Assembly: GCA_044892525.1 (NCBI GenBank)
Contig: CM097887.1
Coordinates: 74,524,001-74,588,000 of the forward strand
Direction: 5' to 3'
Origin: Schmidtea polychroa
Taxonomy: Eukaryota
Length of the DNA stretch: 64,000 bases
The position numbers and the translations under genes are program-made. The notes beneath the pieces are model-generated. The model saw nothing but the letters and a program-made list of their open reading frames with translations. It did no database searches and was not told where the DNA came from. This document shows, piece by piece, positions 3,184 to 4,746 of the stretch (the stretch's first letter is position 1; each line of letters begins with the position of its first letter).

Positions 3184-3581
3184 ATGTCGCAATCTAGCTC
3201 TAGCAGTGACGAGGGCACTGACCAGCAGACGATCACCCGTCTCCGGACCCGGTACATCTGGCACCATATACATCGGTGGGGTCAGGGAAGGGACCTGGAT
3301 TGCGCAGCTCGAGTAATCCGGACGGGCCCCGAAGTGGATGCCCCGAAGTGGATGCCCCGAAGTGGGTGAAGGTGGAGCCGGAGAATAACCGGTTGCAGGA
3401 GGCTCGAGACCAAGCGGCCTGGGACGTGGAAGCCGCACAGATTCGACTAAAGAAAATAGAAGCCCAAATCCGAGCCAAGCGAGAAGGAGTGTCCCTGGAG
3501 GAACTCGAAGAAGCCGAAGCAACTCCCCGAAAGAGAGGGAGGCCTCGCAAACATCAGTCGGGATTATTGGAGGACAATTAA
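3184..3581 (+). CDS. ORF-A: small coiled-coil/AT-hook protein (about 127 aa), split by a 14-bp tandem duplication
   Basis: ORFs 3184-3369 and 3276-3581 merge into one frame if one CCCCGAAGTGGATG unit (3327-3340/3341-3354) is removed. C-terminus TPRKRGRPRK is an AT-hook. Visibly GC-richer than the flanks. AATAAA downstream at about 3634. Confidence 0.55.
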
Positions 3582-3860
3582 CATAACCTAGTCTATTCCC
3601 TTAGTATTAGATATCGTCAAGTGTTTGTGTTTAAATAAAGTATTTTGATTTAGTCTATTTTATTAGTATCATAGTTGAGTATTAGAAACCGTAGAGTGGT
3701 TGTTCTTACGTAAAGTATTCTTCCTTTCTGTTGGTTACATGAGTCAGTTGGTAGATGGAGGGGTTATAAAAATGGCCTAGCGATAAGCGCGAATAACAAT
3801 ATTATCTAATCTTACCAATAATTTATTCTATAAAATTTTTTTTTGGTATAAACAAAACTA

Positions 3861-4346
3861 ATGAGACTCCTTTTAGTGTACAAGCTAATGGAGAACCTGC
3901 GTAAAGATCGAGAGCAGGCTCAGAAACGTGCTGACGAACTCCGAGTCCGAGTGGACAAATTGAAAGGAAAATGCCGGGAGTTCGAGGGGACCTGGTTTAG
4001 TCCCGAAGCGATGAAGAAGAAAACTGCCCAGATCCTCCAGCTACAAACACAGGCCGCTCAGGACCAAATGGAGATCCGCGCCCTGAAATTGCAGGTGCGG
4101 GCACTCGAGACCGAGCGAAATGAGCAGGTGGTGCAAGAGACCGTGGCAAGACAAATCCGGCCACTGACCGTTGAACTCGCGGCGATAAATCCCCCAGCCG
4201 CCGAAAATAAGCCCAAAAGAAAACGGCTTGGGCGAAACATTCGGGAAAAATTGAAGAAGGCCAGGCTGGCCGAGTACGAGCGGCAAACAAATTCATCGCA
4301 AGCGTCTACGACGGGGTTGGCCAGCTCTACCAACAAGCCGAGTTGA
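3861..4346 (+). CDS. ORF-B: coiled-coil protein with basic C-terminal tail, unknown function
   Basis: 161-aa open frame (likely start ATG 3888, MENLRKD...). Heptad-like E/K/R/Q/L-rich helices, NLS-like KPKRKRLGR...KLKKAR. GC-rich like ORF-A. Confidence 0.6.
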   Translation: MRLLLVYKLMENLRKDREQAQKRADELRVRVDKLKGKCREFEGTWFSPEAMKKKTAQILQLQTQAAQDQMEIRALKLQVRALETERNEQVVQETVARQIRPLTVELAAINPPAAENKPKRKRLGRNIREKLKKARLAEYERQTNSSQASTTGLASSTNKPS

Positions 4347-4489
4347 ACTTTTATTCTGGTTTATATATCCTTGTAGTGTGTTGTGTATACTTTGTAGTCT
4401 TAAAAGAATATTTTTATTGTTAAAATAATACATATTTCGTAGTACTAAAATAATATCCGATATGTTTTATGATTGCCGGAGAAATGAGG

Positions 4490-4742
4490 GTTTTGTGCAT
4501 AAGGTTGGGAAAACAATTTTGATAAGGGACCTAAGAAATCGGACACACACCTTCTATCGGTAGTCCGTGAACCCATGGAGTACTCGACAATTATAGTGCC
4601 TTGATGCGCTCACTTTTTGCGAGTACTCAACCCTTGGTACAGTACCAACGTTGATTACTCAACGGGTACCAAGCGGAAAGACAATGTTGCATGTTGGGTT
4701 ACGCTGGTAACAGCACTTAAACATTCGACCACCAGTAACCCG

Positions 4743-4746
<4 letters not shown>
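4490..4746 (+). ncRNA. Structured repeat, copy 1 (putative structured RNA or element terminus)
   Basis: Stems CGGAC/GTCCG, GAGTACTCG(4578-4586)/CGAGTACTC(4620-4628), CTTGGTAC(4633-4640)/GTACCAAG(4666-4673), CGTTG/CAACG, GCTG-GTAA-CAGC and GGGTTAC/GTAACCC. Homologous to 29870-30129. Confidence 0.55.

Follow-up and report, generated by a model that had tools for sequence, protein, structure and literature searches.

The 64,000-nucleotide stretch of the Schmidtea polychroa genome analysed here (the window) carries two neighbouring coding stretches on the forward strand, ORF1 (3184..3581, GC 0.575) and ORF2 (region 3876-4346, GC 0.544), that are richer in GC than a TAF2-like ORF (0.313) or the window as a whole (0.29). 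Both are followed by a structured segment and a (TA)n tract, raising the question of what kind of genetic unit they belong to. An initial annotation pointed out the two co-directional GC-rich frames, a contrast in base composition that these values confirm, and proposed that they form the 3' end of a larger, possibly undescribed mobile or virus-like element, likened to Terminons and Polintons, with its enzymes encoded further left or acting in trans and with (TA)n tracts as possible targets. Comparison with other genomic copies gave a different answer: a giant Gypsy element of the Burro/GYPSM1 type has left a solo LTR of 5.7 kb here, and its final 1.7 kb contains both ORFs and the folded tail.

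The 1.7-kb stretch was found to be multi-copy, with at least 49 matches (40 scored of 2971 candidates) and 20 copies that are nearly full-length and 96-100% identical. ORFs and structured tail travel together in shared boundaries, which bears out the earlier view of a mobile, virus-like unit, and the right end falls on the identical base in 20/20 loci. The (TA)n tract, previously taken as a target or part of the unit, follows the right end in the window copy alone (1/20); it is a host microsatellite (4746..4824) that served as the insertion site of this copy, with the target duplication at 4746-4749. Five copies traced 40 kb upstream share a left part of ~4 kb and then diverge at a single point, and no enzyme ORF was found in this shared left part. 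Thus, the unit is not the 3' end of something larger extending to the left but has its own left end outside the window, the LTR start lying 3628 bases to the left (G000:C3:74520373).

Both ends have the form expected of an LTR, reading TGTTGGG ... CCC(A/G)CCA with short inverted repeats (TG...CA). Exact 4-bp target duplications flanked 5/5 copies first checked and, when 26 whole LTRs were compared, 13/14 of those lacking an internal flank (chance ~0.0075 each). The duplicated bases were ATAT for the window copy and ATAA, AATC and GTCA for whole elements.

Within the window the LTR is split in two on the forward strand, with the middle of the LTR, part of a ~4-kb intron, at 1..406 and the 3' part, ending in ...CCA, at 3053..4745. 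Between them, inside an internal (TA)n of the LTR, lies a DNA transposon on the reverse strand (407..3044) with terminal inverted repeats and an 8-bp target duplication (399-406 and 3045-3052), which we take to be of hAT type. It is absent from the matching place in 19 other copies, and since these continue directly into sequence matching window positions 1-406, the segment is an insertion, without which the solo LTR measures ~5.7 kb. Its transposase-like ORF (884-2125) gave only DUF4371 in Pfam (E 0.11) and no match among PDB sequences. The solo LTR would have arisen by the standard route, recombination between the two LTRs of an element, with the hAT insertion and a frameshift in ORF1 coming later. 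A fragment of a DDE_3 (Tc1/mariner-type) transposase was also seen further right, at window positions 5339-5638 (E 2e-08).

If this is a solo LTR, complete elements should be flanked by two such sequences. Exact matches to the end motifs numbered 272 (right) and 559 (left) genome-wide, and many fell in same-strand pairs ~30 kb apart; the LTRs of two pairs were 99.8% and 99.4% identical. Eight of the 26 compared LTRs were followed by 8 constant bases and then a primer site complementary to the 3' end of tRNA-Pro, as in 5' LTRs, and 4/26 stood after constant internal sequence, which was not purine-rich when checked for a polypurine tract. The 8-base gap and the lack of a purine-rich tract (L101:6138-6165 and L104:1615-1632) are unusual with regard to integrase processing and plus-strand priming. 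The tRNA-Pro 3' motif had 1555 matches in the genome, and tRNA-Pro(TGG) genes occur in a tandem array of 475-bp period (L144, G000:C1:130.90-130.95 Mb). At G000:C1:39.42-39.48 Mb an LTR of the window subfamily and the start of gag form a 15.8-kb tandem amplification.

One full-length example (C1:10228972-10264803) spans 35.8 kb with an internal region of 25.5 kb. Domains identified in the internal region of the giant element were Retrotrans_gag, zf-CCHC, MATH, a fusion glycoprotein (E 1.5e-68), protease, RVT_1 (E 3.6e-36), RNase H, rve and ankyrin. The PR-RT-RH-IN order is that of a Gypsy-type pol, the polyprotein frame pieces total >4700 codons in separate stretches, and TRAF/MATH and BIR-RING ORFs follow downstream of ankyrin. 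In another element, the LTR is 95-97% identical to that of the window and the internal region shares 92-95% identity with the domain-annotated one; these two identities tie the window subfamily to a gag-env-pol element. In full-length copies, the enzymes sought to the left of the window are located downstream of this sequence, behind the tRNA-Pro primer site.

These results bear directly on the earlier proposal of a new element akin to Terminons, Polintons or viruses. In its favour stand the multi-copy unit, its sharp right end, its folded tail with one TAACCC, and the PolB genes that inspection of the upstream scaffold located 31-40 kb to the left. The PolB genes lie outside the unit and are not common to four other copies, the left end is sharp and only 3.6 kb away with TG...CA termini and 4-bp duplications, no hammerhead or other Rfam family reached gathering score in positions 3000-4900, (TA)n follows only 1/20 copies, and gag-pol stands downstream in full-length copies. 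The paired LTRs, primer site and polyprotein refute this reading, to which we assign next to no probability. Presumed Family-B DNA polymerase-like ORFs, named from their motifs, are duplicated in an inverted arrangement in L024 (G000:C3:74484501-74494500) and L031 (G000:C3:59764001-59774000); in L031 they lie between inverted copies of another ORF, a coiled-coil one that resembles an accessory ORF inside the giant element.

The architecture instead points to a known type, Burro/GYPSM1, giant gypsy-like LTR retrotransposons of planarians reportedly described by Grohme et al. in 2018. In the text of one source, these elements exceed 30 kb with an internal region of up to 25 kb, and their polyprotein has an env-like domain between gag and pol, MATH and ankyrin, with BIR also present (PMC6431247). 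The S. polychroa elements match that text in size (>30 kb, ~25 kb internal), in a huge gag-CCHC-MATH-env-like-PR-RT-RH-IN-ankyrin polyprotein, and in BIR and accessory ORFs, a match made by described features and not by sequence comparison with Burro-1/GYPSM1. Ogre elements of plants, according to the same text, are likewise giant members of Ty3/Gypsy, with LTRs several kb long and additional ORFs that have no assigned function; as described there, Ogre differs in carrying those ORFs in the internal region and in having no env in the polyprotein (PMC6431247). With Terminons/Athena Penelope-like elements and Polintons our unit has in common that coiled-coil accessory ORFs run in one direction and that the 3' end is folded, a superficial likeness on that description (PMC6431247). 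Unlike the Terminon and Penelope elements portrayed, the window unit has no hammerhead or telomeric-repeat tail and has a fixed 5' end and Gypsy-type pol; unlike Polintons and adintoviruses as portrayed, it has no PolB, long terminal inverted repeats or 6-bp duplication, its duplications being of the 4-bp integrase type. The text description of Burro/GYPSM1 mentions no LTR genes, leader exon, splicing or tail fold, although its figure may draw ORFs (PMC6431247). The literature searched, a scope outside which lay the primary Burro paper, its supplements and the Repbase entry, held no description of LTR-internal genes for the Burro type. Thus, the element type is already known, and what appears undescribed is the pair of selected genes within the LTR, their own spliced leader and a start codon completed at the splice joint.

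The two proteins have distinct predicted layouts. ORF1 (3184..3581, forward strand; ~121 aa in other copies) comprises a helix, a Trp-rich block, a coiled helix and a C-terminal AT-hook, PRKRGRPRK (3525..3551). The earlier description of an intact frame holds for the coding stretch and its AT-hook but not for the window copy itself, where a tandem 14-bp duplication (3326..3365) seen in 1/20 near-full copies breaks the frame, leaving 61 codons from the ATG at 3184 and the AT-hook in another frame (3222-3581). The AT-hook scored 15.8 bits against Pfam AT_hook (E 0.012), under the cut-off of 17.4, and its core was invariant in 14/14 ORF1 sequences. The ORF2 coding exon (3877..4346, forward strand) encodes two long helices with a conserved TWF-P turn between them and then a basic helix, with a Lys/Arg-rich segment (4209..4283) of 11 K+R in 24 residues. 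The AT-hook in ORF1 and the long helices with a basic tail in ORF2 had both been recognised before. The TWF-P turn and the basic helix with its Lys/Arg-rich segment are still present in distant ORF2 relatives at 26% (L112:4060-4818) and 19% (L039:4988-5677) identity, and the L112 relative has its own ATG immediately after an AG.

Judged from their substitutions, both ORFs are genes under purifying selection. Median dN/dS was 0.18 for ORF1, with all pairs below 1 (86/91 pairs usable, 14 sequences), and 0.15 for ORF2, with all usable pairs below 1 (45/91 pairs usable, 14 sequences), values that come from open copies only (33 for ORF1 and 46 for ORF2, of 56) and from pairs that are not independent, in subfamilies that look mosaic. 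The comparison ran across subfamilies whose flanking DNA can no longer be aligned. Were the ORFs captured host fragments or chance frames carried as passive cargo, broken copies would be common, and many are indeed broken: ORF1 is open with its AT-hook in 13/20 near-full copies and ORF2 in 16/20. The low dN/dS (0.15-0.18) across subfamilies with unalignable flanks, the conserved splice acceptors described below, and the lack of a host-type homologue for the ORF2 profile among 1.8 billion representatives, bar one unnamed protein, make passive cargo highly improbable.

Homology searches placed neither protein in a family. Pfam returned only the sub-threshold AT-hook for the window ORFs, agreeing with the initial annotation that neither protein belongs to a transposase, RT, integrase or Rep family. 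Word-index searches for homologues of both ORF alignments gave 0 matches among ~8000 scored each, and the ESM Atlas had no usable match for the ORF proteins. The single match in a full HMMER scan of the 1.8 billion representatives with the ORF2 profile was the unnamed protein, 157 aa long, encoded on a 638-bp contig and 48% identical over 96 residues; it is the sole relative of ORF2 outside. AlphaFold models of the two proteins had pLDDT 77 and 69 and pTM 0.45 and 0.30, and the suggested fold search, run with Foldseek against viral structures, matched neither model at E 0.001.

How two genes inside an LTR could be expressed is suggested by the conserved sequence further left. A conserved block near LTR position 650-690 contains what we take to be a TATA motif and an initiator-like motif, and it is followed by a leader of 56-69 nt (~60 nt), extending to LTR position ~735, that ends in a GT(A/G)(A/G)GT donor; at this locus the TATA box lies ~2980 bases and the donor ~2900 bases left of window position 1. 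The TATA motif is found in 23/26 LTRs, missing from two rearranged 2.6-kb LTRs and one other, and the donor in 22/26. The base before the donor (-1) is A in 22/22 LTRs, within five different last-four-base words.

Matching acceptors stand ahead of both genes, so the AG sites noted earlier (3180-3181 for ORF1, 3875-3876 for ORF2) are real. In every subfamily that was read, the ATG of ORF1 follows the AG of its acceptor (3176..3181) at a distance of 1-2 bases. The ORF2 acceptor (3871..3876), a pyrimidine tract and AG followed by TG, precedes TGTACAAGCTAATG. Among 31 copies examined the AG was present in 27/27 that were read and the TG after it in 26/27; conservation begins exactly at the AG, the sequence upstream being divergent, and the AG|TG pattern has 463 matches genome-wide. 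The ATG at 3888, previously assigned as the ORF2 start, occurs in only 11/27 of the ORF2 acceptors read; the start is instead completed by the last A of the leader. The ORFs had also been called intronless, and they indeed contain no internal introns, yet they are downstream exons of a spliced unit.

Direct evidence of splicing came from one element (G000:C1:78918511-78953687) with two 1561-bp LTRs that differ by 1 mismatch and a GTCA target duplication. The 4-kb intron has been lost exactly in both LTRs, donor joined to acceptor as A|TG, and the element is a reverse-transcribed spliced RNA. This copy is proof of splicing at the DNA level, which motif evidence alone could not reach. Because the last A of the leader and the first TG of the exon form the ATG at the joint, the ORF2 start depends on splicing, and this joint-made ATG reads in the ORF2 frame. 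Such LTRs are rare compared with the 463 intron-bearing acceptors: an exact leader-ORF2 joint was found in 2/7 matches, representing one event, and the other 5 are point changes in the acceptor with the intron kept. In 13/22 leaders, those of the window subfamily among them, another ATG further upstream also reads openly into the ORF2 frame; only in the other 9/22 does the joint-made ATG remain as the sole possible leader start. A splicing-made start codon has reportedly been published for the gypsy env, a precedent that a literature search did not find.

The ORF1 joint was also searched, giving 19 and 0 matches with patterns that cover some subfamilies; none was spliced, 18 having the normal acceptor and 1 an acceptor variant. 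For gag, and for most accessory ORFs of the internal region, the first ATG likewise stands 0-3 bases after an AG, and the leader is likely shared by gag and these ORFs. RNA contigs from five runs compared with two LTR stretches contained no leader joint, which gives no evidence either way. Poly(A) hexamers were present after ORF1 in 23/23 copies and after ORF2 in 19/25; given the relatedness of the copies and a background of 41% per 160 nt, we did not count them as support. In the window copy, no A(A/T)TAAA follows ORF2.

Flatworm spliced-leader RNA ends in AUG, and the AG sites could in principle be acceptors for spliced-leader trans-splicing rather than cis acceptors for an LTR leader, an operon-like arrangement that would fit an AG directly before the ATG of every ORF. 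However, an AUG added at the ORF2 acceptor would continue as TGT ACA AGC TAA in the window, off the conserved frame, and the intron-less element carries a cis leader joined at that same acceptor, which leaves trans-splicing improbable. Taken together, the locus very probably represents the solo LTR left by a giant Gypsy element of Burro type, with two conserved accessory genes that are likely expressed through a spliced LTR leader.

The structured segment at the right end (4505..4745, forward strand) is conserved, and in 5' LTRs the primer-binding site comes directly after it. Its fold, as claimed, stands out from shuffled sequence: over 240 nt z was -2.55, with 2/200 shuffles as good. In the alignment 96.6% of cells are paired and 8/50 pairs show changes on both sides, a count made on the same alignment from which the structure was derived. 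By four of the five measures the fold scored above every one of 500 shuffles; for the other, further pair types, 498/500 shuffles were as high. The tail, presumed U5, is best read as the U5 end adjoining the primer site.

These features suggest a possible mechanism. With the transcription start and poly(A) sites inferred from motifs, transcription would begin near LTR position 675, giving a U3 of ~0.67 kb, and this inferred start would place both genes in an R/U5 of 4.4-5 kb, the part copied first from the tRNA primer during reverse transcription. A short leader from the LTR promoter would be spliced onto either the ORF1 or the ORF2 acceptor. The 4-kb intron persists in nearly all LTRs, so the RNA that serves as template must as a rule stay unspliced, while the genes depend on splicing; the element thus needs some means of switching between the two forms of its RNA. 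ORF2 could supply this switch in the manner of Rev/Rex, favouring unspliced RNA, and ORF1 would bind AT-rich DNA.

Complex retroviruses also encode LTR-overlapping or spliced accessory genes, such as HIV-1 Rev/Nef, HTLV-1 Rex, MMTV Sag/Rem and foamy-virus bel. They resemble the proposed arrangement in using one promoter, alternative acceptors and small basic or helical accessory proteins while needing unspliced RNA. In contrast, their LTR-overlapping genes lie in U3, at the RNA 3' end, whereas both genes here would lie in R/U5, upstream of the primer site, and no sequence or fold similarity was found. When ORF2 was checked for features of the Rev/Rex type, it showed a predicted basic helix and long helices without homology, and no homology or fold link to Rev/Rex or any named protein was found. 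ORF2 is the likeliest candidate for a Rev/Rex-like protein favouring unspliced RNA, a tentative assignment with clearly less than an even chance. For ORF1, the AT-hook makes it possible, at rather less than even chance, that the protein binds AT-rich DNA at the promoter or integration complex of the element.

The same architecture could serve another purpose, and we give close to an even chance to the alternative that the two proteins are structural or host-directed (a nucleic-acid chaperone, a particle component, or a factor interfering with host chromatin or silencing) and not RNA regulators. Coiled coils with basic patches are generic, fold and feature searches returned only weak helical matches, and the other accessory ORFs of the element are of host-directed types (BIR-RING, TRAF/MATH). 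Against this, both genes lie within the LTR and belong to the shortest of the spliced transcripts, a position that early regulators occupy in complex retroviruses, and the basic helix is one of the few features that relatives at 19-26% identity retain. The complete regulatory proposal is that a Gypsy-class element evolved, apart from retroviruses, the control circuit of a complex retrovirus within its own LTR, consisting of a 60-nt leader, two early genes ahead of the primer site, an ORF2 start written by splicing and a Rev/Rex-like ORF2 that retains the 4-kb intron; as a whole we regard it as rather unlikely. If true, any solo LTR that is intact would form a complete two-gene unit by itself and could regulate full-length elements in trans.

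With two selected, family-less proteins encoded in R/U5, reverse transcription would begin with a product that reaches several kb in length. In an animal used as a model of regeneration, nuclear proteins could be expressed from hundreds of solo LTRs, and annotation might mistake the ORFs for orphan genes of the host. According to one study, these elements are transcribed and piRNA-controlled in that animal (PMC8532177). A second conserved, GC-richer block at ~950-1150 of the LTR, inside the intron (L021:6470-7050, LTR ~600-1180), was also observed and is a candidate RNA element.
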